Shown here in pieces: positions 1 through 35,949 of a stretch of 63,970 nucleotides of DNA. Positions within the stretch are counted from its first letter, which is position 1. Each line of letters begins with the position of its first letter. The position numbers and the translations under genes were made by a program. A model generated the notes under the pieces. That model saw only the letters and a program-made list of their open reading frames with translations, searched no databases and was not told the origin of the DNA. The stretch is from Rhina ancylostomus (Eukaryota), in contig JARFYF010000112.1 in NCBI GenBank assembly GCA_030265395.1, forward strand, positions 51,567,701 to 51,631,670, in the 5' to 3' direction.

Positions 1-675
1 AATTCCCCCCATTTTCACATATCCCTCATACCCACCACTGTTCCCTTAACACACTTCTTTGTTAATTCTCACTCCACTTCGTTCTTTAACATCTTCCTTA
101 GTCTTAACTCCAGCAACATTTCTCAGCTCTATCGTTCATCCATTCATCATCATCTGTTCCCATCAGCCTTCTCCGTTCTTACGCCCTGACTGTATATCCA
201 CAGATCTTCTGCCTCCCAAAGCCAACTGTAGCAGATCCGGCTGCAATATTCAAATGAAGGCACTGCTTTGTCGAGCCAATGTTATATTTCCCGTCTGCAC
301 CGCAGTGTGTGAATGAACAACAGTGTTTTCCCACATCCTGGTGCAAATGCCATTTTGTATTATATAATTGTAAGCAGACATTATGATGACAACTGTATAC
401 ATATACCAGTTTTGAAAGGATATTGAGAATTCTAATGCTGATAATTTGAAAATGTAAAATATAGCTGCATGGGTCATTTTTAAGGATTCTGCATGTGCAC
501 TTGGTTTTCAAACAATTATGTTCATTAATGAGAACTAGCATCCGGTGATGTCTTTAATGTTACAGATTGTGACTGTATGTGTATGATTGTTTGGATGGGG
601 CACCTGTATGACATAGGGAAGTGGGAACAAAGTGCGAATGTGCCTTTCCATGTAGAGAGAGGGGATTTGTTATGG

Positions 676-677
<2 letters not shown>

Positions 678-732
<55 letters not shown>
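678..732. repeat. (TG)n microsatellite
   Basis: Uninterrupted TG run followed by a short CG/TG mixed tract. Confidence 0.95.
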
Positions 733-735
<3 letters not shown>

Positions 736-1315
736 GCGCGTGTGTGCGCGCGCACACGTGGGGAGGGAGCTGGTAAAATATAATGGGCGGAATACCATTT
801 AGTCGAAAGTACGTGGGCATCTAAACCTCCAGATATTTGTAAAGGTCATGGTCGAAAAAGTTTAATGGCGAATATATATTACTGCAAAAATAAAGCAGCG
901 CGCAGACGAATAAATACATTTAAATTTTCTTCAGCCTGTTGTGCTCTGCGATTGTGAGAAATTATACTAAGGTAAAGGACCAATCTTCAGTAGGTGTGGA
1001 CAGTAAATAACAGGTAATTTAACAGAATGTCGTGAAAACAAAACTAGGCTGACAAAGACATGGCGGAAGTGTTTCTAATGGAGTAGAATATTTCAGCGAC
1101 CTTGGCAGACCGAATGTTAAGATTCTACCTTGCATCGACCATAAAATTCTATGTGAAACTTACGTGGGTACAGCTATTCAAGGTACAGCTGAAAATGACT
1201 GTTAAGCTGTAATTAAACATGTTTTACTTTGGCTGAACAATCACAAATTATTGCCTTGACGAATGAGCTGAATGTACGTTCGAAGTTTAATTGAATATTG
1301 ATTGTTTTCCAACAG

Positions 1316-1630
1316 ATAATTTGAAGTTACGGCTAGCCGACGGCGGAAGTTCATGTGCGGGACGAGTGGAGATATATCATGCTGGATCTTGGGGTTCAGT
1401 TTGTGGCGATTCCTGGGATACGACTGACGCTGCTGTGGTTTGCAGACAATTGGATTGTGGGGATGTTTTGAAGACGAATATGGCTGATGATTGTGGAAAA
1501 AGCTCAGGCCCAATTTGGTTGGATGAAGTGAACTGTACAGGAAAAGAATCTTTTATCTGGCAGTGTCCCTCAGCACCTTGGGGTAAACACGATTGTGCTC
1601 ACAAAGAGGATGTGATGGTTATGTGTTCAG
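1316..1630 (+). CDS. Gene A: group-B SRCR domain exon (CD163/WC1/DMBT1-like receptor)
   Basis: ttttccaacag| acceptor and cag|gtaaag donor, 315 bp, phase 1-1. Translation LKLRLADGGSSCAGRVEIYHAGSWGSVCGDSWD...VVCRQLDCG...IWLDEVNCTG...WQC...HDCAHKEDVMVMCS has all 8 group-B Cys plus one extra. Confidence 0.93.
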
Positions 1631-2549
1631 GTAAAGATTCGCTTATTTTTTGAAGTGTTATGTGTGAAATATCACCCAGGAAAATTTAGGAATAAGCTTA
1701 TCTAAACAGCATTGCCGTCCATGTATCCTCCAGCGCTATTTAAACAAGCGGCCGTTCCATTATTTTTCCGCCTATGATTCTCTTTCATCATCTCTTTGGC
1801 ATCCATGTTATATGCATCTACACTGTACTGCCAAGATCCATATTCAAGCAGGTCAAAGTAAAATATATACTTATCAAATATGGACTGCATTTATTTGACA
1901 TAGCATTGTGTTTATCACTCTAGTTTTGAAGTCCTATTTTTGTACCATTCTCACTTGGAGTCTTGAGGTACTAATTTAGAGACATTTCTTTATGCACATG
2001 CAAATGGACATGAAAGTTTTTTTTCTCTCAGATTGCCAGATTTCAAAAAATATTTCATGCAAATATGAAAAATGATATCGAATGACACTTAGCAGATTGT
2101 GTTGAGTCCAGAGATGAGAGTTATTAGTGCACAATGGACCACTTTAGCCCAGCCGACTAATTACCCACTACATTTACAACACCCTGTACGTCAGCTAGAA
2201 CAGAGTATATTTGTTCTCCCAGTCAAATCCCAAACTGGTGACATGTGTGGAATCTCCTTTCACCCTTAACTCCCAACAGTAGAGGCAGCAAAAGAATGTA
2301 TTTTACCGTTCAAAATCTTCAAATCCAAACAAAATTTTACAAGCTGATAAGTCTCAAGTGACCAGTGCTGTGTTAAATTCTCCATGCTCTTGGTCTTCCC
2401 AAATTGTTACTTTCGCCCAGCAGTCCAGCAGTGTTTGTAATATCAGTTCCGGGATGTATTTTAAACAATATTTTGTACAGTTAGCATCTTACTATATTTT
2501 CATAGTTTTCGCTCATAAAATTAGCAATTCTCCACGACTAAAATAGAAG

Positions 2550-2772
2550 TAAAAACAAACTGCGGATCCCGTAAAGCTGAAATAGTTTCAGTAAATGCTA
2601 AAATCAATCCACAGAGCAGGCAGCGTCAGTGGAAAGGAAACTGAGCTAACGTTTCAAGTTGAAGAATTTTCGTCAGAACAATCATATCTTCGGCATGAAA
2701 TGTTGTCTCTCTTTTCTTTCAGTAGATGCCAAATGACCTGTGAAGCAATTCCTGAGAAATTATGTTATTGTT
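2550..2772. mobile_element. Degenerate palindromic non-autonomous repeat (Penelope-associated type)
   Basis: Imperfect inverted arms (aaatgct...gcaggcagcgtcagtggaaaggaaac / ctctcttttctttcagtagatgcc...tgacctg). Related fragments at ~22390-22600, 32190-32290, 33330-33400, 43550-43610, 46395-46540. Confidence 0.45.
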
Positions 2773-3009
2773 TTAAACAATTAATGATTCAAAACAATCA
2801 CGGTCTTCTGATACAACCATGATTAATATTCAATAAGGCAAAAATAGAGCCTCCAAAAACTTCCTACCAAAGACTTCCTACCAAACTCAGAGAAGCTCCA
2901 TAACAAATATAAACATCCACAATTGTGATTACATTCTCTCATTTTACCGGGTCAAAATTCTTAATTGTTCAGAAAACATGTGGCTGTCTATAGCTCAATA
3001 TTATATGTT

Positions 3010-3080
3010 TTTCCTATGAAGAGCTGCGAGCTGTTTTGTTTTATTTCCTATGAAGAGCTGCGAGCTGTTTTGCTTTATTT
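3010..3080. repeat. Direct tandem duplication, ~34-bp unit
   Basis: ttcctatgaagagctgcgagctgttttg(t/c)tttat occurs twice in tandem. Confidence 0.9.
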
Positions 3081-3477
3081 CTGTCGTATTTTTATGTTAT
3101 ATATTGCTCCCTTGCAATTCTCACACGACTTTGGCCATACAGCTGCACATGCACTTGACAGATAATTTACGTTTATTCTAAACCTTTCATTTCCTCGCCA
3201 AAACTTAATGGTTATGATGCACAATCAAGATTCCGACATGACTCTTGGTTGCCGTTTCTGCACTTTCTTCAGATTATTCCATCAGCTTTGGCAAAATTTA
3301 TCTAGCATTCTTTGAAATAAATATCGTGTTTTCTCCCTGTATGTTTCAAGTGCTTCGAAGTGATACTTTTAAAATAAGTTATCAGTGAACATAACGGGTA
3401 CCAATTGAAATGCGCAGTGTTAAAGCGCAACAAAAATGTCGTCCGAGACTACCGCAAATGTCCCGTTTCGTTGACAG

Positions 3478-3795
3478 GGCACAAAGACTTACGATTAGTG
3501 AATGGAAAACATCGCTGTGAGGGAAGAGTAGAGGTATTCTACAATGGGTCCTGGGGAACAGTGTGCTCGGAATCACTGGACCCAATTGATGCTGAAGTTA
3601 TCTGTAAGCAGATGCATTGCGGTCCCCACGAAAGGATTCAATATGATGTTCAGGAATTTGGAGCAGGATCGGGAGATATTTGGCTCGATGATGTGACATG
3701 TACTTCACACGAGTTGAGGCTTTGGCAGTGTCAGTCAAACCCGTGGGGTGAACACAACTGTCAGCATTCGGAAGATGCAGGTGTTATTTGTTCAG
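3478..3795 (+). CDS. Gene A: group-B SRCR domain exon
   Basis: ttgacag| acceptor and cag|gtaaca donor, 318 bp, phase 1-1. [29 protein letters not shown]...VICKQMHCG...IWLDDVTC...LWQC...[14 protein letters not shown], 8 Cys. Confidence 0.93.
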
Positions 3796-3877
3796 GTAAC
3801 ACAACGAACAACTCAGATGATAGCATCATTTCAAATCATGATGTTTAAGTAACCTACGTCATTTCCTTTCTCAACAG

Positions 3878-3955
3878 AAGCCAAGTTGCCAGAGGGGCAG
3901 TTCAGTTTAATGGACTGCTTTCGAGAACCTGGTACTGTGCCCAGGCATTCGACAG
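3878..3955 (+). CDS. Gene A: inter-domain linker exon
   Basis: tttcctttctcaacag| acceptor and cag|gtagat donor, 78 bp, phase 1-1, open (EAKLPEGQFSLMDCFREPGTVPRHST). Conserved with the same splice sites at 23416-23493. Confidence 0.75.
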
Positions 3956-4044
3956 GTAGATTAGTTATTCCGTTCACTAACCCACCTATCTGGTCTGTAT
4001 TCCTTCTATTTTACTCGAAACAATAACATAATTCTCTTTGATAG

Positions 4045-4370
4045 AATCCGGGCAACAGATTCGTCTTGTAAAAGGTAACACCGAATGCTCAGGGAGGGTT
4101 GAGATATTACGGAATAACAGCTGGAACACCGTGTGCGATGACTCCTGGGATATATCTGATGCTCAAGTTGTCTGTAGACAGTTGGGTTGCGGCCCTGCTC
4201 TATCGGCCCCGGGAAGTGGCGCCTTTGGGCAGGGTGACGGTGTGATCTGGCTGAATAAATTGAAATGCACGGGAAGTGAATCTTTTCTTTCCGACTGTCC
4301 TTCCTCGCCGCCAGGGCTGCATGACTGTGACCACAAGGAAGATGCCAGTGTGATTTGTTCATCACGTTTT
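4045..4370 (+). CDS. Gene A: membrane-proximal group-B SRCR exon
   Basis: ctctttgatag| acceptor. [46 protein letters not shown]...[14 protein letters not shown]. The |gtaagt donor at 4371 is phase 0 and matches the phase-0 TM exon. Confidence 0.9.
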
Positions 4371-5126
4371 GTAAGTTATCAGAATTGAAAATATTTTTTT
4401 TGAATGGGTGGCTTTTCTTTCAGTCACATTTTTCAGCTTGTACATTTCGGGTGGCAATGTGAATATTATCCAACATTCTGTACCATGCCCGCGTTCCTAC
4501 CATTCCACAAAATTCCGTCCAAGCTCATTAATTTAGCCGAGTGTAAAATTTCTTCTCCATTTTCGCTTTCGCTGTTAATATACCCGACGTAAGCTGGACG
4601 AGAGGTCTTGGGATGTATTAATTTGCAAGGTGGCCACCACTTTTGTGCATACCCGTGGTGAGCATTCCCAATGACTAGGTTTCGTTGTTCACAAGAACGC
4701 GTGGCCATGGTAACTGGTTCCTCTCTCGTGAAGACGAAGCGTTGAGAATAGCTCTGATATACATATCAACCGGAATTCATTATTTTTGATGGTCTTCTGT
4801 GAAATGGGTTGGCTACGGATTTCCGCTGACAATATTCACATTTGCCAATATTTTTAATCATTCGTGCGGTCTGTCCTTTTCATAGAATTCCCTTAAAACT
4901 TATTATTTCTGGTCATGTTTTACATCAGAACTACTAAAGGTATTTCGGCTACAACGGTCACTCGTTCTGTCACAACAGATATTGGGGGATATCCACTGTA
5001 TGACTTCCTGCACTAGCTGGTTGCTATGCTAATAGCTGCGTTTAAAGTAATTGATCATGCAAGGCGTTTGCAATTCTGTTTTTATTAAACAACGAAAATA
5101 ATATTAACCGTTGTTCTTCTTAACAG

Positions 5127-5238
5127 GGACGAACTGCTATCTCTATCCCTGTTATTGTCTGCTTTTTACTCGGATTTCTTTTCGTCTGTGGATTGTTCGC
5201 ATTGATCTTGGTAACGTGGAGAAAGTCAGAAGGCAAAG
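5127..5238 (+). CDS. Gene A: transmembrane exon
   Basis: ttcttcttaacag| acceptor. GRTAISIPVIVCFLLGFLFVCGLFALILVTWRKSEGK is a hydrophobic helix followed by basic stop-transfer residues. Ends at aaag|gcaagc (GC donor, phase 1). This frame is not in the ORF track. Confidence 0.82.
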
Positions 5239-5730
5239 GCAAGCGTCTATTTATGTCTTTGAATTAACACTGATTTTTAGAAGTTGTTTCTTATTCAGTT
5301 GCGACTCCCTGCTCTTTGCTGTTTTCCAAGTATGGTGGAGATTTGTTATAAGCATACATGAGGCAGCGCCTGGCGCTTTATTCCAAATCATTTACCAAGG
5401 CACCATCATGTCATTACTCTGCTTCTAAATTGATGTCGCTCGACCAAGTCCACTAATATCGCCCAAATGGATTTTATGCCCATTGTCCGGCAATTCTTTG
5501 TAACTAAGCTTTCCATCTACACTCACTTTTCTTCTTGGATTTAACTTGATCGAGAATCCATTCTGGGCTAACTTGCAAATGCGCACGCGCGCTCACAACA
5601 CAAATCATCCATATACAGTCGACCTAAACCTTGCACCCGATTGAATGATTAAGAACCATAAACAGATCACGAGCTGTTAATCATGCGTCATATAATTCAA
5701 AATGCACTACATCTGCCTTCTCTCCATCAG

Positions 5731-5838
5731 ACGTTGTCGCTGGCCGGTGGGTTTCCCGCGCTGGTTTGCACCAAGTTGTTTATGAGGAGATTGAAGATAA
5801 TCCTCGCGATACTCAAGTTGTTCAGACACAAGGTTCAG
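5731..5838 (+). CDS. Gene A: cytoplasmic exon with VVYEEI tyrosine motif
   Basis: ccttctctccatcag| acceptor and cag|gtttgc donor, 108 bp, phase 1-1. DVVAGRWVSRAGLHQVVYEEIEDNPRDTQVVQTQGS. Confidence 0.82.
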
Positions 5839-6881
5839 GTTTGCTTTACGTTACTTTCGAATTTTCACCTTGCAACTGCCTTATCTCTTTATTAACCGCC
5901 TTAATCGTTGGTGTACTGACCAGGTGTGAAAAATAATCTACTTACTATATTCAACGGTGCTCCTGCGCCTAATTGACAAACTCAGAGCGTCGTGTGAGTT
6001 TTGAGAGGGGACGTACTTTTTGGGCATATGGCTCGGAAAAAATGTGGTGATTTTCCCTTACTTCACCGTGCAAGGAAAGGACGTTTATTTTTATTTTGCT
6101 GCGGTGCCCGGCATCCCATGTGTATGTGACACCATGGAAGATAGGCAGTGTTTTTGAGATAATTATCTCATACATGCAGCCTCCACCAAGTCTTGGTGTT
6201 ATTTTTATCGGTTTTCATCTTTCATAAATAGATTGATTACCTGAGTGAGATTCTCAACAGCAAATAATTTCAAATGTTTAACAACTCAGCCGAAGGTGGT
6301 TGTGCTCTGTGGTCTCATTTCCAAATTATTCAACGCATAAATAATCAATTTCGCTGAACTTAGCAGTATGTTCGGAAAAAAAAATCCATCAATTACGCGA
6401 AATCTGTCATAGGATGGGGCATGTATATAAAGAAAATGTGATCAGAAATCCCCCAGTTGAGTACTCTAAGTTTCATTGTGCTTTGGTTTTCTTTCTCCCC
6501 ATCTACATCTCTTCTGCTGAGGGCGGTTGTTTTTTTGTTCAAATAAAGATATTATACCATGAAAAATATAAAATGAAAATTAGCAATGGAATGGGAGAAT
6601 GATATATAAACTGAAACAACAGAGATTGCATTCAGCAATATTGTTCTATAAGAGTTTATTTGCGCCGTCATATATCTCAAAGCTCAAGTTGGCCAAAGAT
6701 GTAAATCACCTAAGTATTTGATGGATGAGTTAAAGGCGTACGTGAAGTTAAAGCGCAATTTAATCTTTAGCCTGGCTAGTGAAGATTGTTGTACAACTTT
6801 CTTCTACCTTCCAATGCAACAATACCGCGAATCCTGTCTCCACATCTAATTTTAGCTAAATGAAATTTTGTTCCTTTCAAG

Positions 6882-6938
6882 ACCTGTGTCTTGACAGTGA
6901 CGGTGATGCTCACATGGCAAACAATGACTGGTTTGATG
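6882..6938 (+). CDS. Gene A: candidate further cytoplasmic exon
   Basis: tttgttcctttcaag| acceptor and gatg|gtaatt donor, 57 bp, phase 1-1, acidic DLCLDSDGDAHMANNDWFD. Homologous acceptor at ~24808. The 3' boundary is uncertain. Confidence 0.4.
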
Positions 6939-7222
6939 GTAATTTGGTGATGGTCAGTGAGAGACCCATCAGGCATCTTTTCAAAGCTGTGTTGAAACAC
7001 AGCGTTTAGCCATCGATAAACAGTGTACACTCATTTAAATGAAATGCACATGTGTATGTAAAATCACTAATCTTACAACCACACACATCCGTCGTCAACC
7101 TATTAAACTAATAATAGTCTATCAAGTGAGTCCCTNNNNNNNNNNAGAACCCAGGCAATGCCATCCATTCCCTTCATTGTGACAATGGCTATATTCATTT
7201 TGACATGTGTATAAATTTGCAG

Positions 7223-7257
7223 ATTCCGCCGCTGAGAGACACAGAGAGACGGATTGA
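7223..7257 (+). CDS. Gene A: candidate terminal coding exon
   Basis: aaatttgcag| acceptor, phase 1, DSAAERHRETD-stop. Supported only by splice phase. Confidence 0.25.
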
Positions 7258-10064
7258 AGGCATTACCTTGCCTGCATATTGACCGTAAGAGGACATTTTG
7301 TCATTATTTTTTAGTTTCATATATTTCCTGACAATGTACATGAAGGGTATGACAATCCAGGAAAATAACAGTTGGCTAAGACAGGCACAATGACATCAGT
7401 ACTTTAGAGCTTCTTGAAAAGAATATAAAATGTAGAGGGATGACATCAAACAGAACATAAAGATACAACATAAGAGTGTGAAAATAAATTCTACCAAGGA
7501 AAATTACAAGGAAAATTACTTTTTTGCATTCACTTAGAGCAGAAAGAAAACTGGGGAACAAGTCGGAATGATAGAGTATCTGCAAAAATGTATGGAACTC
7601 GATCGTGTTCTTTAGGTTACAAACGAATCGATTTCAGTAAAACTGACAACATGAAGGGGGGAGGGATTGACACGTACCTAATGGTGCTCGGGTTCCTGAC
7701 ATTGAAATAGCCGAAGAATAGTGTAAAATTGTGAATGGATAAGCACAATTAAAGAAGGAAAATCAATAACCTCAGGATATTTTGAAGGACATATATCAAC
7801 AAGTTAGGATGAAGCAAGCCAAATCTGTCATAACAAACCAGGGAGGGAATTTCCAAAGGCACTGACTGTAGCTCGTCCCCGCCTCCCGCCGTGCCCGGGT
7901 CTGGGAGAGTTGTACCATAAATTTGGTTTACTGATGACATTGTGCCATTGTTTAAGGAGGGAGGAATAAAAGGCGAGTGGTTTTAACTTCAATGACGAGT
8001 AATTTTTCATTGGAAAGAACTGTATGCATCTGTGTAAGTCAGAAAGACACCGTTCAGTCAAGGACAGCGAGGGCTAATGTGTTGTGAGAAATCACTACCT
8101 TTATAGTCTGATTGAAGGAATGCAGGAAAAGACATACAACATTCATTCTGCTCACAAGAGTGCCAGGTAATACATTTAGAAAAATACAATTAGCCAATCC
8201 ATAAAGAACGGTGAGCTTCATAAATGTTTTTTTCCATAAAAGTAACAGAAATAAAGGTTTGTCAAATTAGATAAGAAGCATGGGGATTGCCGTTATTAAT
8301 TGACCGAAAGAAAGGACTTAAGAACAGGAACTTATGTCCAAATGCATGTAACCTAGCCTGGCCAACATACGATCACTGCTGAAAGTTCTGGTGCCATATA
8401 ATTTTAAAAACTGCGAAGGCAAAAGGAGGGCTTTTGTAGAATTAAACGAATATTGCCAAAATGTTACAGTTGTAGATTTTCGGCAAATATTCGATTATTT
8501 GAGTATGTTTTCTTTGGACCAGAGGAGTTTGAGGGGAAATTTAATTCATGAAATGTGGTTGAAAAGGACGTTTTCACCCAGAATGTGATCGGGGTCTCGA
8601 ATTCACAGTCTGAAAGGATGGTGGAGGCATATCATTAAATTTACCAAAAATGAATGTTCTCTTCAAAATTATGAACATGCAGGAAAATGGACCAGGTGCT
8701 AGTATTGCTTAAGGTTGGGCTGCTCTTTACTACTTCGACGTGCACGAAAGTCCAAATGCCTTTTTGTATTTTTTGTGATTTCATGTGTTTCACTTCTGTC
8801 TTTGATTGCAGTGATTGCATTTTCCATAACTGCAAGAGAAAACATGCTGAATTTTGCGTTAATATAATATAATTATTGATGGGAACATGCTGAGAGCCTG
8901 TTACGATCCCTGGTAAACATCATGCATTTCAATGGCTTGTGTCTTTAATTTATATCTCAAGATGGATCTTTATATTTACTTCCAGGTAAATGAGAACATG
9001 CAGTCCGGAGTGCATTTTCAAAAAGCGCACCACTGATGAGAGTAAACATTTGAAATTACATTAACAGATATTGTTAATTTGCTTATTGTCCAGCAGCGTA
9101 ACTGGACTGAATCTGCATTCCTTTGCAATATAAACACTTGTGGATCTCAATTTCCGTTATTATCGCCTCTGCTACATTTACTACGTGGATTTTCTCAGCA
9201 AATTGTAGAAAATTATGTTTCGTGTATTCAAACATTAAAAGAGGATTTAACGCATCATATTTACTGCCCGTTTTATTCTCGCAAATCATAGACAGCTAGC
9301 AAATGGGAGGAGGAAAACGCCACACAGTTTATCGAAAGTGATCACTCATGAAAAAGATCAGGGTATTTAATACCACATTTGTTCTCTCTCCCCAACCTAT
9401 TTCATGCGCTTTAAATCTTGAAATATATCGTCCTTTATGGATTCCCTTGTTACATATTATAAACAAAATGACGTCTTAATTATTCAATGACTTTGATCTG
9501 CATCTTTTAAGTTACTATTCAAATCATACAGTTGTACTGACAAACATCTTTCTGCATCCCTAATAAAAATTACACCGTCCGCAACTACGTTTCGTTGTCT
9601 CAACTACCTTCTACAGCTTCTTGTGCTGCATTTTGTTTGTTCATCCTTCCCTTAATCGCACAGTTGTCAAGGAGGCTGAAATAAATTCCCATTTATTGTT
9701 AAAGTGCGTGTTCTGGGGCTTCCTCAACACCATATCTGAATTTTGCTTAAATGCTTCACCCTTCTCCTCAACCCTCTCCTTGTTACCCCGTTTCCATACA
9801 CACCCTGTTGTTAAATATGCAATCTTAGAGGCGTGGCTCCTCCTGGAACAAATGTTCCAGGTAACCTTCTCCTTCCGCGAGTAATGCTTGTTGTCTGGAC
9901 TCCAACTCATCATCATGGTGCCCAAATTACATGAATAATCGCCATTTACAGCAGTTCAAGTGTCCTCGCACGAATGCGTTCACGAGCTCCCATGGACATC
10001 CAGTTTACATTGAATACGTTATCAAATTTAGTATAGTAATTTGTATTTTTTAAAATATATGTTC

Positions 10065-20050: not shown

Positions 20051-21285
20051 CGACTCTCTTGTCGTCCCCTTCCATCTCCTACTTCTATCGTCTTCACTCC
20101 ACTTTGTTTCTATCTATTCCCCCTCCGCAAAATATTGCCCCCGGCTCTCCAAATTTTACCCCTCCCATTTTCACAGCAGATCTATTCATTAGTTTCTTTC
20201 ACTCATCATCGTCAATCTTCACTACACTTCGTTTATGCCATCAACAGCCTTTCTCAGCTCCATGTTCCTTCATCCACCCTCATATCTTCCCGTCAGCGTC
20301 GTCCTTTCTTTCAGACTCTCGTTTCCTCCGCAGATTTTTAGTCTCGCGTCGCTAACCAACTCAGATCCAAATGAGGCCGCTAGTTTGGATAGACACCGCT
20401 TTGATTTCTAGAATGCACTGCACTGCGTAAGTAAACAACCGTACTGTGCCATACACTGGTGAAGTTTCCCATATGTATTATATAATTGCGAGCAGATATT
20501 GCGACGCGAAGNNNNNNNNNNNNNNNNNNNNNNNNNNNNNNNNNNNNNNNNNNNNNNNNNNNNNNNNNNNNNNNNNNNNNNNNNNNNNNNNNNNNNNNNN
20601 NNNNNNNNNNNNNNNNNNNNNNNNNNNNNNNNNNNNNNNNNNNNNNNNNNNNNNNNNNNNNNNNNNNNNNNNNNNNNNNNNNNNNNNNNNNNNNNNNNNN
20701 NNNNNAACATTGTGCAGGCCGAAGGGATTACGCTTGTTAGTCATTTACTTACCAGTTTATAAGATAAGATAAAATTTCTTTATTAGTCACATGTACATCG
20801 GAATGCATCTTGGGCGCAGAGTGTTTTGGAGGGACCCGCAAATGTCACCAGGCTATCGGCGTTCAGCACAACATAGTGGACTGAGGGGCTTTTTTTTTCT
20901 GTGCACTACTGCTCGTTGTTTCCTGTTAAATAATGGTGGTGCTGGACTGAGGTGTGCTACAGATCCGGAGAAGGTCGAGACAACAAAACTGGAATAATCC
21001 AAAAGAGTATTTTGAAATAAAACTGGGCCTGAGAAAGCATGGATGAGGTATCGGATAGGAAGCATTATATTTGCACGGTGTTCGAAGGCCGAATGTTCGT
21101 ATTCTATGTTATACCACTAATAGAAGTCTGTCTAAAATGTACACGGTGACAGCTATTCGGATTGAAGCTCAAAAATAAACGTTAAGGTGCAATGAAGCAC
21201 GTTTTACTTTGGCTAACCAATCATAAATTATTGAATTGATGAAAAGGTTGAATGTACGTTAGGAGCTTTGTTTGTTAAACAACAG

Positions 21286-21600
21286 AATATTTGAAGTTAC
21301 GGCTATCCGACGGTGGAAGTCCATGTGCGGAACGAGTGAAGATACATTATGCCGAAGCCCGGGGTTCAGTCTGAGGCGATTCTTGGAATATGGCTGATGC
21401 TGAGGTTGTTTACAAGCAACTAGATGGTGAGGACGTTTAGAAAACAAATCTGACTGGTGATCGTGGACAAATCTCAGGACCAATTTGATTGGATGAAGTG
21501 AACTAATCAGGAAACGAACCTTTTCCCTGGTAATGTTCCTCTGCACCTTGGAGTGAACACGACTCTGCTCAAAAAGAGGATCTGATGGTCATGTGTTGAG
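21286..21600 (+). pseudogene. Gene B: disabled paralog of SRCR exon 1316-1630
   Basis: Clear nucleotide similarity (ttgaagttacggctatccgacggtggaagt...) but several Cys/Gln/Ser codons have become stops (e.g. TGA 21372-21374, aactaa, tggtaa, tgttga). Confidence 0.92.
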
Positions 21601-23415
21601 GTGGTGATCCGTTTATTGTTTCATGTGTTGTGTGTGAAATACCCCTCAGGAAAGCGAACGGGCAAGCTTATCGAAACAAGTTTTTTTTTCCGTCAAAGCC
21701 TCCTTCTTTGCTGTTTCAACGAAAGGCAATTCCACTGATTTCTCCCGATTCATATTTCTTGTATCATCAGAGTGACGACCCTGTGACATGTCTCTACGCT
21801 GTGCTAGCAAAATCCATGTTCAAACGTACTCTTATCATATCTGAACTACATTTATTTGACATTACTATGTTAATCACTCCTAGTTTTGAAGTTCTATTTT
21901 GGATCATTCTCACTTGGATTCTTAAGGCACAGATAAATCAAACAGTTCTGAAAGCGATATGAATATGCAAGAAATATATCTCTAGTGGGTTCTCCACGAT
22001 TNNNNNNNNNNNNNNNNNNNNNNNNNNNNNNNNNNNNNNNNNNNNNNNNNNNNNNNNNNNNNNNNNNNNNNNNNNNNNNNNNNNNNNNNNNNNNNNNNNN
22101 NNNNNNNNNNNNNNNNNNNNNNNNNNNNNNNNNNNNNNNNNNNNNNNNNNNNNNNNNNNNNNNNNNNNNNNNNNNNNNNNNNNNNNNNNNNNNNNNNNNN
22201 NNNNNNNNNNNNTCAAGTTGTTACTTTCGATGAGCAGTACAGCAATGTTTGCAAGGTCAGTTCAGTGAGTTTTAAATGCTCAGGTATATTGTAAACAATA
22301 ATTTGTTCAGTTTGGACCTTGGTATATTTGCATCATTTTGCGTGTACAATCTGCAATTCGCCCATGGCCAAAAGTAAAAGTTAACGGCAAATTCTGTAAA
22401 TCTAAAATAAATTTAAATAATACTGGAAGCAATCGACAGATCACGCAGAGTCTGCGGAAAAGAACAGACTTAATGTTTCAGATTTTTTTTAAATGTTGTC
22501 AGAATCATCAGATCTTTTACACGATAAGATAGCTGTTTCTCGTTCAATAGACGCTGCATGACCCGTCAAACAGTTCCTGAACATTCTATCCTTGTTTCGC
22601 ACAAACAATCTCTTCTGACACAAGCATGGTTGATATTATTTTAGAAAAAAAGAAAGGCTGGTGTTCTTCGCTGGTGTATTGCTGAGGCTTGCTTGTCTCC
22701 TAAACTCAGCCAAGCGCAATAACGCATATCAACATGCATAATCGGAAATACAATCTCTTATTTGACTTGGTGAAGTTTCTTCCTGGAAGATATGTAGATA
22801 TTAATAGAGCAGTGTCATATTTTTCACTAGAACAGCTGCCATCTGGAATTTTGTTTACTTTTATGTTGATTTTTTAAGTAGTATTCATCGCTCCCATGCA
22901 ATCAGTATCGTCTTTGGTCATGCACCAGGATGCACACGCAATCCACGTGTCAGTTACATATATTCGAAAGCGTACATAGAATCGCGGAGATGAAACAGTT
23001 ATGATGTACCATAAGGATCCCCACCGTGAAACACAGAAACCCCTACTTACAATGCACTGAAGCAGTATATTCAACGATTGCATCAGTTTCTCGTATCACT
23101 ACCACTTCGTTTTATGAGTCTACTCACTCAATATGCATTTCCACGTCATACATTATCATTATGATTTTACAGACTATAATATCGCTCCGCGCTCCAAAAC
23201 CAAAACGTTATATTGAATAAATGCAGCATTAATCCGAATTGCTACTTCTACACTTTATTCAAACAATTCAATTTACTTTATCAATATTTATCTCTAATTA
23301 GTCAAAAAATCATTACCTGTCGGTTTCAAATGTTTGTGAAGGATGCTTTAAAAGAAAACAACATGGCCAGTGAACACAACGGGTAAATTTAGTCATTTCC
23401 TTTCTCCCTCTGCAG

Positions 23416-23787
23416 AAGTCAATATGCCAGAGGGTTCCGCCAGTTTAAAGGAATTCTTTCGAGAATGTGGTAATGTGCAAAGGTATTCTTCAGGTAGATT
23501 AGATGCCCTGTTCACTAACCCATCTTTCTGACCCGTATTACCTCTTATGTTCACTGGAAATAAACACATGATTCTCTTTGAAAGAACGCATGAAAACGAA
23601 TCGCCTTGTCGGAGGTAATACCGGATGCCCAGGGAGGGTGAAAATATTGTTCAATAACAGCTGAATCTGCCCATTATAGAAAAATGTTACCGGCCGATGA
23701 GTTACCAGTACTGGTTTGCACTAAACTGTTTAAAAGATATTTAAGGTATTCCACAGCGCGCGCATGTTATTCTCACACACAGTTCAG
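23416..23787 (+). pseudogene. Gene B: linker exon (23416-23493), truncated SRCR exon start (23585-23663) and disabled cytoplasmic exon (23680-23787)
   Basis: Homologous to 3878-3955, 4045-4123 and 5731-5838 respectively. The cytoplasmic copy has stops and has lost YEEI. Confidence 0.85.
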
Positions 23788-25449
23788 GTTTGCTTTCCGT
23801 TTGCTATCGAATTTTCACGGCATGACTGTCATATTTATTTATTGTCCGCTTTAATCTTTGGAGTTCTGACCAGTGAGGAAGAACAATTTGCTCACTACGT
23901 CCAGGGGAACTCCAGCATTAAATTGGTAAAATCAGAACGACGCATTCATTTTCAGAGGTGTAATCCTTTGGGGATATTTCTCCCTGGAAATATACCGCTC
24001 TTCACTTGTCTCACACGGGAACGAAACGATTTTTATTCTTCTTTTGTGCCTATGCACAGGCTCCCAATAGTAATTGATTTCATGCATTAGAGATAAGTCT
24101 TCTTAGCTGTCTATCCCATGCATTGAATTACCGTCTAGTTTTTGGTGTTTTTTTATTAGTTTAAGAAATGGATTTATTAAGTGGGTGAGTTTTCACGACG
24201 ACAGTAAACAAGTTCAAGCTTATTGTAACGCAGACGAAGATAGTTGTGTTCTTTGGTTCAATTTCCAATGTATTCAATGCATGAAAAATCCATTTTACTT
24301 CGTTCCATAGCATGTTCTATTGGATCCATTAATTAAGCCGGATGTGAAAATTGAAATAGGATGAGTCATGTGAAAATTGGGATCAGAAAATCCGCCAGCA
24401 AAGTTCTTTAGTTTTCAATGTGCACAGATTTTATTTCTGCCCAACTCTGTCATTCCCGCTGGACACCAGTTTCTCCAAGCAAGGATATTACACAAGGCAA
24501 AATTACTTTAGGAATTGGATGAGAGAATGATATATACCTAAAGAATAGCAATGAATTCAGAATATTGTTCAATAACACCTTATCTCCTAAGTGCTTGATC
24601 TCATGGCTCAAGATGCCTGAAAAGCAAATGATATAAGGGTTTGCTGGATGAGTTAAAGGCTCATAGACAGAGAAATCTCTATTTCAACTGGAATGTCACT
24701 ACGGTAGACTGTTATACAGCACCCTGTTTCTGTGTTCGAATGTAAAACACTATGAATCCTCAGCTTCCGCATCCGTTTACAGCTAAATTCAATGTTGTTC
24801 CCCTCAAGACCGGGTGCTGACAGTAACAACGATGATTGATATTATTTTGCTGATGTCCGTGAAAGTAACACCTGGGAAGTTTGGAATCGTTCCATAAAAA
24901 ATAATTAAGTCAACGACATTTATTCATTGATCAACAGTGAAAACCCTTTCCATTGAAATAAATGTGTGAATGCAGCATGCACTAATTTGGCAAATGCATA
25001 CATCGCTCGTCAACCTAATACTAGCCTATCAACTGACGCCCCACAGAATGCAGTCTCGGACGTCAAAGCACACATGCAATTCCATTCCTACCTTTATTGC
25101 AACGCTATCGACATTCATTTTGACATTTCTACAAATTTGCAGATAGCAGCGCTAAGAAAACTAAATGGCGAATTCAGGATTTTTCTTTGCCTACAAACTG
25201 ATGGTAAGAAAAATCTTTTCATCTTTTAGTTCAGCGACTTGCCTGTCAACGTGCAAGGATCATAAGACTATCCAGTTTGATTACGGACAGACATGTCAGG
25301 CATGGAACTCAGTACTTCAGGGAAACCAGAGGGATATAAAATATATGGGAACACCGTTAAACTGGAAACAAATGAAAAGAAACAACATGAGAGCGTGATA
25401 ATATGTTTCTGGAAGTTAATATCAATGAAAATTATATATTTTTTTATTT

Positions 25450-25848
25450 ACAGCGTGGTAACAGGCACTTCCGACCCAACGAGTCCGCACCGCCCATTTT
25501 AAAGACCAAATTAACCTACCCGTACGTCTTTAGAATGTGGGAGGAAACCGGAGCACCCGGAGGAAACCCACGCAGACACGGGNNNNNNNNNNNNNNNNNN
25601 NNNNNNNNNNNNNNNNNNNNNNNNNNNNNNNNNNNNNNNNNNNNNNNNNNNNNNNNNNNNNNNNNNNNNNNNNNNNNNNNNNATTAACCTACCCGTACGT
25701 CTTTAGAATGTGGGAGGAAACCGGAGCACCCGGAGGAAACCCACGCAGACACGGGAGGACGTACAAACTCCTTACGCACAGCGACGGGAATCGAATCCCG
25801 ATCGCTGGCTCTGTAATAGCGTTGCGCTAACCGCTGTGCTACAGTGCC
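25450..25848 (-). mobile_element. tRNA-derived V-SINE (HE1-like)
   Basis: Minus strand reads GGCACTGTAGCACAGCGGTTAGCG...GGGATTCGATTCCC (A/B boxes), then the V-domain GGAGTTTGTACGT...GCGTGGGTTTCCTCCGGGTGCTCCGGTTTCCTCCCACA. Confidence 0.85.
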
Positions 25849-26499
25849 TTTACACGGACATGTGGAGCAGAAAGAAAAACGAGGAACACGGCCGAATGAT
25901 AAAGTATCTGCATATACTCTATGGATCTCGACTTTGTTGGTTAGTTTACAACCGAATCCATTTCAGCAGAGGGGAATATATGAAGTGGTGATGGAATGAT
26001 ATGTAAATGATGGAGATGGGGATGCTGACACTGCTGCAAGCTAAGAAAAGTTTGAAATTGTGAATGGCATAAATAGAATAAAACAAAGGACATTAAATAT
26101 TTTAATATATTTGAAAGTAAGTATATCAACAGGCTGGGAAGCAGTACATCAAGTCAGTGATAACATCCACGGGAGGAAATTGCAAAGTACTTGCACCTTC
26201 TTCCCTGTCCAGGAATGTTATACCATAACATTGGCTTACTGCTAACACTGGACAATAATTTCAAGATGAAGGCAAAAAGTCTAATGATTACTGGCGAGTT
26301 TTAATTTAAGTGAAGAATGTTTTTATTTGAAAATAATTGAACGGATCTGTTGAAAATATCATTCAGAAATATACAGGCCAATTAAGGGCAACGGGCAATA
26401 ACGTGTGAAGAAAATCAGCGCCTTAATAATCTGATAGAAGGCATGCAGGAAAAGAAAGTGAACATTTACTCAGTTCAGAAAAGTGTCAGTTGATACCTT

Positions 26500-26574
26500 T
26501 GTCATGGTTCTGAGTTCTGGCCCTCAATTTGGCTCCATTAATGCCTTGTTGTCCAGCACATGGATTCTATGCTG
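26500..26574 (+). mobile_element. 5' end of ~406-bp LTR family (runs into gap)
   Basis: tgtcatggttctgagttctggccctcaatttggctcc... Confidence 0.8.
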
Positions 26575-27904
26575 NNNNNNNNNNNNNNNNNNNNNNNNNN
26601 NNNNNNNNNNNNNNNNNNNNNNNNNNNNNNNNNNNNNNNNNNNNNNNNNNNNNNNNNNNNNNNNNNNNNNNNNNNNNNNNNNNNNNNNNNNNNNNNNNNN
26701 NNNNNNNNNNNNNNNNNNNNNNNNNNNNNNNNNNNNNNNNNNNNNNNNNNNNNNNNNNNNNNNNNNNNNNNNNNNNNNNNNNNNNNNNNNNNNNNNNNNN
26801 NNNNNNNNNNNNNNNNNNNNNNNNNNNNNNNNNNNNNNNNNNNNNNNNNNNNNNNNNNNNNNNNNNNNNNNNNNNNNNNNNNNNNNNNNNNNNNNNNNNN
26901 NNNNNNNNNNNNNNNNNNNNNNNNNNNNNNNNNNNNNNNNNNNNNNNNNNNNNNNNNNNNNNNNNNNNNNNNNNNNNNNNNNNNNNNNNNNNNNNNNNNN
27001 NNNNNNNNNNNNNNNNNNNNNNNNNNNNNNNNNNNNNNNNNNNNNNNNNNNNNNNNNNNNNNNNNNNNNNNNNNNNNNNNNNNNNNNNNNNNNNNNNNNN
27101 NNNNNNNNNNNNNNNNNNNNNNNNNNNNNNNNNNNNNNNNNNNNNNNNNNNNNNNNNNNNNNNNNNNNNNNNNNNNNNNNNNNNNNNNNNNNNNNNNNNN
27201 NNNNNNNNNNNNNNNNNNNNNNNNNNNNNNNNNNNNNNNNNNNNNNNNNNNNNNNNNNNNNNNNNNNNNNNNCACGTACTTCTCGATCTGTGATTGCGGT
27301 GACTGTACTTTCCACAGCTCCAGTAACGTCAACAGTGAACATGCTGCACATTACCTCAACGCAAATATTGATGGACACATTTGGAGTGAATATTATGATC
27401 CCTGCTAAACATTCATTTCAGTGGGCTTTATCCTTAATTCATATCTCAACATGGATCTACAACCTTTCCTTCGGGTAAATTTGAACATACAATCCTGAGT
27501 AGGCTTTCCCAAGGCACAGCGCTGATAAGCGTAAATATTACCTTTTGCATCTGGAGAGATAGTTAACTTTATTTATTTTCCGGCAGAGTAACAATACTAA
27601 TTGCGCATTCCTTCGTAATATAAACAACCATGAGTTAGGCTTTCATCATTCTCGCCAATGCTCAATTTATTGCTTTGATTTTCACAACAAATTTTATAAA
27701 AATGTGTTTTGTGTATTCAAACAGCAACATTAAAACAGGATTTAATGAATTCTATTATATGTATTTTTGTATAAATTGGGGAACCCTAGAAAATCGGAAA
27801 TCTCCGTGTATGTATTCCTAGTTACATTCCATAACCAACCTGAAATCGTAACAATTCAACGTTTCTCATCTGTATCACCATAACATTTCTACTCATACCA
27901 TTGA

Positions 27905-28555
27905 GTCTTTGAGACATACACTACAGAAGCTGGCCCGTCAGCGCAGCATTCCATGCTGACGATCAGTTACCATTAAGATTTTCTGCATGTTGATACTAAC
28001 CTAAAACTCATTTGGAACCCTTTTTTCAAGGGAAAATCATGGTGTTCTTTACCGCAATCAGATTTCTCCTCTGCCTTTTCTGATCCAAGGAAAGCAAACA
28101 CAAATTGCCAGTTATTCGTCAGAGTTAAAGATCCCCATCACAGGCAAAAACCTGTTAAATTTCTTCTATCCTCCATCCAGAGCAATTGCGTTTTTTTCGA
28201 CAGTGTGACGAACAGTGCAGAGCACTGTACTCCAACAGTGGCCGAAAAATATTCTGTAAAACATACAGTATATCCTCTCTGATTTAAAATTATTTGATTC
28301 CGTATTGGAAGCAAATGACTTGAATGCCTTCTTAACCACTTGAGCTTCTTGTGCTGCCACCGTCATGGATTCTGCGACATTAAGATCAAATGAATATTCC
28401 ATAAAATTGCATAAAGACTGTCATTCACTGTTCCTCATTGTAGTAACCGCTCAACCTGAATTACGCCACACGTGACAAGATAAAATTTCATCTGACACTG
28501 CTCTGTCCATTTTAACTCAGCTCGATCATGTTATAGCGGATAACAGCCTTCCTCA
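27905..28555 (-). mobile_element. Old degenerate CR1 3' fragment
   Basis: Minus-strand VVKKAFKSFA...GHCWSTVLCTVRHTVEKNAIALDG-type remnants and a CR1-like tail. Confidence 0.55.
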
Positions 28556-28559
28556 CGAT

Positions 28560-29880
28560 CATCAGAACACAGAACTGTACAGCATAGGAAGAGGTCCCAC
28601 GGTGTTGTGCCGAAATAAACTAAACTGATTAAGTCCTAACTAAACTAATCTCTTCTACCTTCACATTCTTTTTACCTCTGCATTATTTGCACATTCATGT
28701 GCAAATCTAAGAGCTTATTTAAAGACCTGTATCGTATGATCCTCCATGACCAATCTTGGGAAAGCATCTAGGTACCCACTACTTTCTGTGTAAAAGAAGC
28801 TAGCCCCTCACACCTCCTTTGTACGAAACTCCCCACCTTAAATGCATGCCCTCGAGTATTAACCATTTTGGACTTAGTAACTCCATACTGGATAACAACT
28901 CTATCTATTCTTCTCCGAATTTTATGTATTTTAATCATCCTCCACCTTGAAAGTGAAAATAATCCAAGGTTTTCCGACCTTTTCATATAGCACATGCCCT
29001 CTGGTCTAGACAGCGAGCAGGTAAATTCCTGCACCTTGCCAAATGCTTCCACATACTTCCCATGATGGGAAGACCTGAATCGAATGCAATATTCCTGATG
29101 CGGCCTGACCAAAGATATAAAAAACTGAAACGTAACTTCCTAACTCTTGCATTCAATGCCTTGATTAATAAAGGCAAACATACCATACGCCTGTCCACCT
29201 GTACAGCCGCGTTCAGGGAACAGTGAACTTGGACCACAAGATACCTATATGCATGAACATTGTTAGTGGTCTGGCCATTATCTGTGTCCAGTCCCTTTAC
29301 AGATGGTCTCACAAAGTGAAGGACCTCAGATTTGGCCGGGTTAAACTCCATGTCCTATTTATACGCTCAAATTCCGCTGTATACTTTGGCAATCTTCTAC
29401 ACTATCCACAACGTCACCAATTTTTTTAAATCTGCGAATTTACTAATTCACCTATCTATGTTTTGATCGATATCATATATTACAAATATCAGAGGTTCCA
29501 GTATGCATCGCTGTGTTACACCACTAATCACAGACTTCCAACCATAATAAACAGATCGACCACTACCCTCTGTCATCTTTGGGCAGGCCAATTTTGAATC
29601 CGAACGCCTAATTCACTGTTGGCCCCATGCATCTTAATCTTCTGGAGGAACGTGCAATGAGGGACCTTGTCAAATGGCTTGCTAAAATCCATGTAGACAA
29701 CATCACAGCTCTTCCTTCATCAATCATCTCTGTCAACTCCTCAAAATACCTAATGAAGTTGGCAACACATGACTTGGCCCTCACAAAGCCATCCTGACTG
29801 TTCCTAATTAGCCATTGGGTTTCCAAATAATCATAAATCCTATCCCTGAGGGTTTTCTCCAAAATATTCCCTGCTGCTGA
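28560..29880 (-). mobile_element. CR1 LINE 3' part (degenerate RT)
   Basis: LRDRIYDYLE...SQDGFVRAKSC, MEFNPAKSEVLHF, VRPHQEYCIRF and a 3' tail. Confidence 0.88.
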
Positions 29881-30639
29881 CGTCAGATGCTCATCACCGA
29901 TTTCCGTGTTATCTCTATCTGACTGGCAGAGCTTATCACATGCAAGGTTACTAATGCATATAGCAAGTGTATAACAAAGTATAGGTCAAAGACCTATCGA
30001 TATGGAGTACACTACTCAGAGGTTTCCAAACGTCAAACCAACACCCCACCTTCAAAACCTGTATAGTAATACCAAACTCGATTTATATTTCCCATTGTGC
30101 GCTTGATCCCATCGGTTTACCTGCTTCGAGCAGGCTCCAATGTATGTTATTTTGAAAGGCCTTTCTATAGTTCGTGAGCATCACCTTAACCACATCATTT
30201 TAATTGTTCAATCTGGACCACTTTGTAACACAGCCTTACACAAGACCTTAAAAGTCCTGCCTCTCAAAGGCAGGTTAATTCTGTCTTCTACAATTTTCTT
30301 CCACTATGTCTTTACTGGTGCTATTAGATTCTCTGGTGTGCATTTATATATTTTGTCCTTGGTGTTCATCTTGAGCAAGTGTACCAAATTTCGCTGGTAA
30401 CTTCGCAGACAAGCAGTAACTGATTGGCATCTGGGTCTCGCAGTACAAATTGTCCAGAGGTTCGGTGATATCATGGAGTCAGAAGATATGAGCATAGCCG
30501 GTCCATATCTTGAGTCCACATCGATCACCAAGAAATAATTAACGCTAAATCCTACTGGATCCGCCTTTCCGTCAATCTCCAACAACCACAAACCAAAGCT
30601 TGCACCAGTATGATGCTATCCGATTGTCCATTGATACTG

Positions 30640-30790
30640 GTCAATTAATCTAACAACTTGTATGTCTTTGGTTTGAGTGAGAAAAACGGAGCATCAGAAG
30701 GAAAGCAACGCAATATCAATGCGAAATGCATCAACTCCACGCAGACAGAGCCGGAGTTCAGGATTGATCTCAAATTTGGTGAAGCTGTGC
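30640..30790 (-). mobile_element. Degenerate V-SINE
   Basis: Minus strand ctctgtctgcgtggagttgatgcatt...gatgctccgtttttctc...ccaaagacatac, a V-domain remnant. Confidence 0.55.
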
Positions 30791-31859
30791 GGAAGTAGAA
30801 TTTTCTATTTGTGGCGCTGAGCTTCCACTGATCTAATTCCTTCTCCTGCACTTTGAAGGCAGGATAACCTTGTAATTCTGCTTGGATTGATTTGTATCTA
30901 CATCCCTCATTACAGCGGCACCATCCATAACTATGTTACTTTACCTCCATTATCTTGTTGGACTTCCTCTGCTGCAGTGCCAGTTTGCTCGTCCTCTACT
31001 TAACCCCACATTTGTCATGAAAGTATGAATTAAATTCTTATTTATTGTTAACGTGCTTGTTTTCAAGTTTGATCAACACTATTTCTGGAATATTGGTGGT
31101 CCCAACCCCAATCCCCATAAGCATCATTATATTAAAACTTTTATCTAAGAGGTTTGGCACCTCTTCGAGAAAATGTTACAGGTAACTTTCTCCCTACCAG
31201 AGTGACTTCTGCAGAAGGGAGTCCAACTCCTCTTCATGGTGCTCAGGTAATAGGAACACAACTATTTACAGATGATTGAGTATTCTCGCACAATAAGTTC
31301 AAGCATCTCTCGTTTTCCAGCAGTAACACGCCTTGAGTCCTCCCGTTATTTATATGTTTGATTAATTAGTTGTCACTGCATTCAGTTTCACCCATGACAA
31401 TGAGTTTAATTTTTAATATTTACTTAAGTATACGTTAGCTAGAAATATAGGCCAGGTCATTACCATTCTCTTCCCTGCTGTTCGATATTATGTCGTTGCT
31501 TTAATTTATTGATGTTTTAAATCCCTGGGTGGTAATGCTTGGTTATGAACTATCAAAGGAAAAGATGGTGCAGACCTGTTCCTAAAATCCTTCTCCTGTC
31601 TCCAAATCATGACCTCAAACTAAGCTGCCAGTCCCTTTCATAGACCGCTGCTTCCAAATCATGAATCTGCACGGATTAAGCTGCACTAAAAACAAGATGA
31701 AACCCCACAGCAGTCAATCATAGCTTTATTACATTTCCATATTTTTTGCATTTCCGTACTGCTGTCTTACTTTGCACACCACCAGCCTCCATATTCAAGG
31801 AATTGTAGAGGCTAGCTACGCTGAAGTAAAATACGAGATGATGGTTTGAAGTCGAAGAG

Positions 31860-34670: not shown

Positions 34671-34770
34671 NNNNNNNNNNNNNNNNNNNNNNNNNNNNNN
34701 NNNNNNNNNNNNNNNNNNNNNNNNNNNNNNNNNNNNNNNNNNNNNNNNNNNNNNNNNNNNNNNNNNNNNN

Positions 34771-34879: not shown

Positions 34880-35047
34880 TGTTGCTAGTTTCTACACACA
34901 CAAACCAACCAAAAAGAATTTTATCAGACCAACAATCAGTCGTCCAATAAGACCCCAATTTGTTCAAACCCAGACCACTAGCATCAGTCGTGAGTTCGAT
35001 TACAGGCATCCTCGTCAATTTTGGGATCGATCCCGGACGTATGATTC

Positions 35048-35121
35048 GGGCTATAACCCGAGGGGTATGATTTTCGCTTGGGGTGCAAGAGGCCCCGGGT
35101 TCAAATCCCGGACGAGCCCCA
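35048..35121 (+). pseudogene. tRNA-Pro copy (anticodon GGG, 5' end replaced) forming an extended PBS of the LTR element on the minus strand
   Basis: 35061-35119 matches vertebrate tRNA-Pro positions ~14-72 (AGGGGTATGATT.TCGCTT GGG GTGC.AGAGG.CCCGGGTTCAAATCCCGGACGAGCCC), followed by CA. The minus strand reads TGGGGCTCGTCCGGGAT 4 nt after the LTR end. Confidence 0.85.
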
Positions 35122-35125
35122 ATTT

Positions 35126-35802
35126 TGTTACGAATCAACAACAAAAAGAAACACACCGAGTTATGTATATGTGTTAGAAACTATTTTATTATTAACTACT
35201 TATAATTATAAGAAAAATGTTAGATATGAAACGTTAACACCCAGAACTAATCCCGAAGTGTATGTGGCAAATTCCCAAACTCTCAGTCCAAGAATAGCTC
35301 GCAAAGTTCAGTTCAGCAAGCTATAAGGTGAAACATGAGCAAAGGCTTTTGCAAAACCGCCGTTAACTGAAGAGAAATTGCGAAGAGAATATAACGAGAA
35401 GTTACGAAATTAAAATGTTCCATGATGGAACCCATACGTCAGCTCAGTCACTAATGATCTCCAATGTTTTGTTCCCAAATTTCTGCCACCCTAAAAGGGA
35501 TTCGAGACTAGCCGTCTACAGAAATACCTGTTTCCTTCTACAGATTAACGACAAAGTGGGCTCCACTGGGTTATTCCAAAAACACATGCGTGGATTGGAG
35601 TGACAGACACATTTATTGTTTTTCATCCATCGATACAGAGACCATCAAGCAATATCTCTCTCTCTTCCTCTCTCTCTTTTCTGACTGCCAAAACTTCAGC
35701 ACGTCGTTTCCTCCTACAGTTGTCGAAATGACGCCACACACACACACACACCTGCACGATGTCTTAAAAGAACATTCACCACTATTAACCTAATCCGAGA
35801 CA
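35126..35802 (-). mobile_element. 5' LTR of Gypsy-type retrotransposon
   Basis: Minus strand begins TGTCTCGGAT and ends ATTCGTAACA (7/10 inverted match). AATAAA (35185-35190) is followed by a GT-rich tract before the end. It is directly followed by a PBS-Pro and has no matching TSD, so it is not a solo LTR. The far boundary is less certain. Confidence 0.65.
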
Positions 35803-35949
35803 GTGCGTTTGTGGAGTAAAGTCAAAAAGACTGATACTTCAAAATATCGTATTGAGCATGGATCTCAGGATTGCAAACGACCGCCAGAGCGGGTAATGCT
35901 GTAGCTCGTTGTTCTTATGAGCCTGCTTAAATACTGTGTAGCAGTGATG

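Follow-up and report, generated by a model that had tools for sequence, protein, structure and literature searches.

The DNA of Rhina ancylostomus examined here holds a Gmr1-like Gypsy retrotransposon with a copy of most of a mature tRNA-Pro attached at its 5′ LTR. We put the probability of this reading at about 85%, and include in it that the copy was likely made by a reverse transcriptase which had passed the m1A58 stop, and that the G at tRNA position 34 likely stands for inosine. The stretch of DNA analysed, referred to below as the window, is 63,970 nucleotides long. The piece found in it is not a one-off, and dozens of such chimeras are present in the genome.

On the minus strand, the window element reads in the order LTR, spacer, tRNA complement, linker, 10-nt partial site, leader, gag start and assembly gap, with its other end lying beyond the gap. 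The features are as follows.

35126-35803, minus strand: 5′ LTR of the Gmr1-like Gypsy element, 678 bp, with TG...CA ends
35122-35125, minus strand: 4-nt spacer from the LTR end to the primer-binding site, matching the family's ordinary 5′ LTRs
35105-35121, minus strand: tRNA-Pro primer-binding site, positions 59-76 including CCA, here one G short
35061-35104, minus strand: probable primer tRNA run-through copy, positions 58 back to 14
35080-35082, plus strand: anticodon GGG, its G34 a probable copy of inosine 34 of tRNA-Pro(IGG)
35040-35060, minus strand: scrambled linker of 21 nt, a 14-nt hairpin followed by a re-copy of tRNA positions ~18-25
35030-35039, minus strand: second, partial primer-binding site (its last 10 nt), by comparison with 30 leader loci
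34880-35029, minus strand: 5′ leader of the element, with 289 first-look candidates in the genome
34771-34879, minus strand: gag start, cut by the assembly gap at 34671-34770

L026, an intact tRNA-Pro(AGG) gene which ARAGORN called in this genome, served as reference for the window copy; 35061-35121 corresponds to it from tRNA position 14 to the end. The initial annotation had started the piece at 35071, whereas the match to L026 begins 10 bases further left. It had also described an anticodon loop of TT-GGG-GT, with GGG at 35080-35082, and a 3′ end, GAGCCCCA (35114-35121), carrying one C fewer than a gene end plus CCA; both are read in the window. Apart from the lost C, the copy differs from L026 only by four substitutions: C27T at 35073, A34G at 35080, G41A at 35087 and T47C at 35093. 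Of the mismatches outside the anticodon, the change at 35087 is CpG decay, that at 35073 is non-CpG, and that at 35093, in position 47, which we take to be a dihydrouridine site, is absent from every other copy. A58 is retained (35104). A functional tRNA-Pro(GGG) gene was considered for this copy and rejected, positions 1-13 being missing; ARAGORN and Rfam, applied to the window, left the copy uncalled as a tRNA because the 5′ acceptor strand is missing. The linker at 35040-35060 is unique among the copies retrieved and is covered by no other scored match, and at 35030-35039 the strand returns to normal element sequence. The gag start is homologous to that of another copy of the element, L074, and a Pfam search with the 34-aa gag piece of the window gave no match. 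Elsewhere in the window, 286-9738 and 20404-31087 share collinear blocks which are 70-85% identical and lie ~18-21 kb apart; these are an old tandem duplication.

The 678-bp repeat has ~2532 first-look candidates in the 2.2-Gb genome, and the best relatives of the window LTR are 81-85% identical to it. Exact 4-bp target duplications were found in 9 of the 14 relatives with both ends detected, out of 29 fetched, and 35126-35803 is therefore an LTR on the minus strand. The ordinary primer-binding site of the family is an 18-nt match to tRNA-Pro. Among 30 loci holding the leader, 21 of the 22 which could be scored have ordinary 5′ LTRs with a tRNA match of only 15-19 nt; in the remaining one, L087, the match extends towards the anticodon. 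L074 encodes a SCAN domain in the frame downstream of the gag start (E 2e-10). The pol order is integrase, reverse transcriptase and RNase H in L166, a locus tied to the LTR via L024, L129 and contig C5213, where pieces of integrase or reverse transcriptase occur together with LTR or leader; no protease was located. The placing of integrase before reverse transcriptase and RNase H is described as defining Gmr1 (PMC2582038), and SCAN as frequent in Gmr elements (PMC4131045), in whose gag it is not universal. By its pol order, SCAN-bearing gag, TG...CA LTRs, target duplications and tRNA site, the element is classed from sequence as a Gmr1-like Gypsy LTR retrotransposon. A defect in RNase H as the explanation of the run-through is unsupported, the one copy inspected keeping its four acidic residues.

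The leaders of some relatives show features of their own. Just after the primer-binding site, L065 and L079 carry a short sense-strand piece which resembles the anticodon arm of tRNA-Pro and holds GGG, as if a sublineage had inherited a run-through product. Leaders in L073, L080-L082, L084, L088 and L137 contain tandem units of ~33 nt, each holding part of the primer-binding site, which were possibly generated by repeated faulty strand transfer.

The case for inosine is built on base 34 across the genome. DNA and pattern searches recovered 71 distinct tRNA-Pro-like copies, a lower bound, all of which reach well past the 18-nt site. Nine that lack both CCA and LTR make up a gene-like class, a small set drawn from tRNA arrays which may be incompletely assembled, and the remaining 62 are nearly all joined to the Gmr1-like element. 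L092 was classed with the genes, L136 and L137 were taken as element-linked on the strength of element repeats seen by eye, and L153 is counted in the 62 though it is a fragment with neither detected element sequence nor CCA. Base 34 of the gene-like copies is A in five, T in three and C in one, and the earlier expectation that tRNA-Pro genes would include no GGG gene is borne out in all nine. Among the other copies base 34 is G in 42, T in 10, C in 5 and A in 3 (with an indel adjacent in one of these three element-linked A34 copies), two copies stopping before it. G34 is thus present in 42 of 60 informative copies as against 0 of 9 gene-like copies (Fisher p ~8e-5). A pattern blind to the anticodon matched at 47 places, and at none in a reversed control. 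Base 34 is G in 32 of these places, T in 9, C in 3 and A in 3; four of them are gene-like, and G is found in none of the four.

Since the AGG, CGG and TGG genes are identical except at base 34, the closest parent of a copy is undecidable from the rest of its sequence, and the argument is a statistical one. Inosine is reported to be read as G (PMC4446420), and A-to-G changes at other A sites in the copies amount to 3/476. Because G stands at position 34 in 42/60 informative copies while the background change is below 1%, the window G34 is very likely derived from inosine, and the proposal of the initial annotation that it records an A-to-I edit gains support. It might instead be a point mutation of A, C or T, or come from a real tRNA-Pro(GGG) gene missing from the assembly. 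The three other substitutions and the lost C of the window copy are in keeping with mutation, and the apparent under-assembly of tRNA arrays with a hidden gene. Both origins are nonetheless very improbable against the low background and the 42/60 versus 0/9 split, and G34 tRNAs are described as absent from genomes which code the A34 form (PMC4446420). Simple point mutation, which the initial annotation had allowed for, is therefore a poor explanation.

A CCA-like end is found in 48 of the 53 non-gene copies which reach the end, and in 0 of 9 gene-like copies. Together with the G34 count, this upholds the earlier view of the piece as a cDNA of mature tRNA, but not as a free retrocopy: it is better read as the over-copied primer of an LTR retrotransposon. 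Some retrotransposons target tRNA genes for insertion, and an element of this kind might simply have inserted beside genomic tRNA-Pro genes. The LTR does adjoin the tRNA, and several chimeras are called as tRNA genes by ARAGORN, which reports a tRNA-Pro(GGG) gene at 7 of 31 loci scanned. Such targeting would leave unaccounted for the CCA, the truncated 5′ ends, the position of the target duplication outside the tRNA and the identity of the spacer with the normal LTR-to-primer spacer, and can be given hardly any weight.

The chimeras appear to have arisen many times over. Sixty distinct 5′ flanks are seen among the 62 copies, and one junction is common to three of them, L024, L129 and L150. These three have an identical leader-to-tRNA junction in inverted arrangement, with anticodons TGG, CGG and TGG; either shared descent or a recurrent microhomology join may lie behind it, and they are probably related. 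In what is a length-biased set, 37 of the 62 copies start at positions 7-10. A pattern combining T-arm, CCA and an LTR-like TGT returned 179 rows against 14 for the control, and among the matches listed (100 of 179) at least 31 are Pro-type. Sixteen Pro-type copies were new, 12 stopping short of the anticodon and four reaching position 34 with G, G, G and T; their starts were read from the listing, as the automatic 5′-end walk mis-scores copies mismatched near 48-49.

One locus, L181 (G000:C1:141490200-141492200, ~960-1020), carries positions 38-76 of a tRNA-Phe plus CCA on the same LTR and spacer, and from position 38 on is identical to the tRNA-Phe gene L239. Phe sequence cannot be templated by an element whose site is Pro, and what was copied was therefore a physical, mis-annealed primer. 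The copy in L181 stops at G37, presumably the wybutosine site of tRNA-Phe. Over-long tRNA-Ser pieces ending in CCA were also observed in a second LTR-like family (L178 and L179), that in L178 reaching position 38 with the anticodon not covered, and run-through copying is probably not limited to one family. ARAGORN further called a tRNA-SeC(TCA) at L235, but this has an ordinary body length and is probably a mutated copy of another tRNA.

These junctions also bear on the idea that the copies form a SINE-like or TRIM-like family with a tRNA head, all going back to a single master or a few, with G34 fixed in one of them. Some propagation is indicated by the junction shared by L024, L129 and L150 and by the GGG fragment shared by L065 and L079, and in a tree of 23 copies (first 200 LTR bases), mostly unresolved, the window copy is grouped with three other GGG copies. 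Descent from masters is highly improbable all the same, given the 60 different junctions, the four anticodon types, the Phe version and the 4-bp duplications with TG...CA ends; on the LTR tree, moreover, G34 is unclustered beyond shuffles (6 changes versus 6.8, with 175/500 as low). A tRNA-derived SINE or a Helenus-type TRIM was likewise rejected, since those junctions, anticodons and the Phe version do not fit a single inherited tRNA head shared by all copies.

Further marks of the primer can be sought in the mismatches of the copies, counted without L129 and L150 (likely relatives of L024) and leaving out positions after 52 in five copies which switch to element sequence. At A58, 11 of 52 copies carry a mismatch (nine G, one T and one C), compared with 10 of 476 at other A sites (p 5e-7). 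This excess is as expected from copying through m1A58, since m1A is reported to cause both arrest and misincorporation (PMC4787781). Starts at 38-39 are seen in four of the 16 new Pro copies, in the Phe copy and in one Ser copy. G37 of tRNA-Pro, which we assume to be m1G37, is mismatched in just 2 of 58 copies, a lower count than one would expect had a blocking base been read through. At positions 48-49, mismatches are present in 6 of 9 T34 copies (L015, L024, L029, L111, L128 and L130) versus 2 of 40 G34 copies (p 1.5e-4); possible causes are an isodecoder gene missing from the assembly and a modification specific to the UGG tRNA. Finally, changed sites make up 92/562 at CpG and 62/2584 elsewhere, an excess which shows that the copies have been ageing in the genome as DNA and did not arise as chimeras in assembly.

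Beyond the tRNA, 10 of the 62 copies have a U5-type LTR end and 9 an inverted U3-type end, and the occurrence of both speaks for template switching as the explanation. An exact 4-bp target duplication was found in five of the six copies with both outer LTR termini seen (L013, L027, L028, L149 and L186, chance 0.005 each), L181 being one base off. Among the 10 copies whose tRNA borders directly on host DNA and whose far end was detected, one has an exact target duplication and one a near match. One could suppose that the primer stays on the minus strand as an RNA flap through integration, to be ligated by host repair and copied later by a host polymerase; G34 would still record inosine, and only the copying enzyme would differ. 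The short direct U5-end duplication just before the tRNA in 10/62 copies, several of them with exact target duplications, agrees with such a flap, as does L015, where the target duplication lies directly against the tRNA. However, it would serve the U5 class only, explaining neither the nine inverted U3-end copies nor the window copy and L087, whose tRNA stands between 5′ LTR and leader; we regard the flap, and with it copying by a host enzyme, as unlikely.

Under run-through by reverse transcriptase, the reading we prefer, plus-strand synthesis would pass the usual m1A58 stop and copy the primer tRNA, in the window copy back to position 14 before removal by RNase H. Being too long, the end would fail to pair with the minus strand, and a few short template jumps would produce the linker. 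The end would then re-anneal to the final bases of the primer-binding site, from which it would continue into leader and gag, and the resulting product would be integrated. In other copies the run-through end may have gained a new integrase-type end by switching to an LTR template, or may have been joined to host DNA by repair. Run-through with template switching would in this way account for all the end classes, including the window copy, with the rescue step presumed. Points which weigh against this reading are the A58 retained in the window copy, the three element-linked copies with A34, the rarity of G37 mismatches and the scarcity of target duplications at tRNA-host junctions.

The Rhina copies provide a count, made in vivo and in the germline, of which primer isoacceptors were used and of how often the m1A58 stop was passed, with RNA modifications likely written into genomic DNA. 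The chimeras also pose an annotation risk, since they can yield false G34 genes such as those called by ARAGORN, and they supply the tRNA plus LTR intermediates reportedly proposed in an older idea on the origin of SINEs. On slightly better than even odds, some LTR retrotransposon families rescue and integrate run-through cDNAs often enough (here for roughly a few percent of LTRs) that a fossil tRNA-seq builds up in the genome. Were this true, such a record would report germline primers (here ~70% IGG, with UGG and CGG making up the remainder and a wrong tRNA being rare) along with I34, m1A58, stops at 37 and perhaps a so far unrecognised mark near 48-49 that is specific to UGG. Annotations in general would then be liable to take up false G34 tRNA genes from run-through copies, and these copies would also be raw material for tRNA-headed elements.

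A number of parallels can be drawn with known systems. The element resembles other Gmr1-like Ty3/Gypsy elements in its pol order, gag SCAN domain and TG...CA LTRs, and appears unusual only in the frequency of kept primer run-through copies, no other tested feature setting it apart. In HIV-1, for which run-through products and stops of plus-strand strong-stop synthesis have been reviewed (PMC13191261), the run-through products P1 and P3-P5 and the sequence of primer over-extension likewise reflect copying past m1A58, with further stops described close to position 37 or where the tRNA reaches its 5′ end (PMC13191261; PMC11251516; PMC8599865). The HIV-1 products described there come from in vitro work or from mutant cells, the longer among them being characterised as unusable for strand transfer, whereas the Rhina counterparts are fixed in the genome. 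HTLV-1 reportedly uses one UGG isodecoder, while anticodons beginning with G, T and C all occur in the Rhina element. In repair-deficient cells, abnormal provirus-host junctions similarly have primer-derived bases at the 3′ junction and microhomology, yet those described hold only 2-15 nt of the site (PMC2797772); the Rhina junctions hold up to a whole tRNA, and unlike them carry an anticodon and modification signatures. Helenus TRIMs share tRNA-derived sequence in an LTR element and, in animals, 4-bp duplications, but are described as having one inherited tRNA-like part inside the LTR (PMC10886601). In Rhina, by contrast, the tRNA is outside the LTR, ends in CCA and varies from copy to copy. 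No report of a genome-wide fossil set of primer run-through copies was found in the literature searched, most subscription papers lying outside its scope. The chemistry of run-through is known from HIV, and the genomic fossil set appears to be the new aspect.
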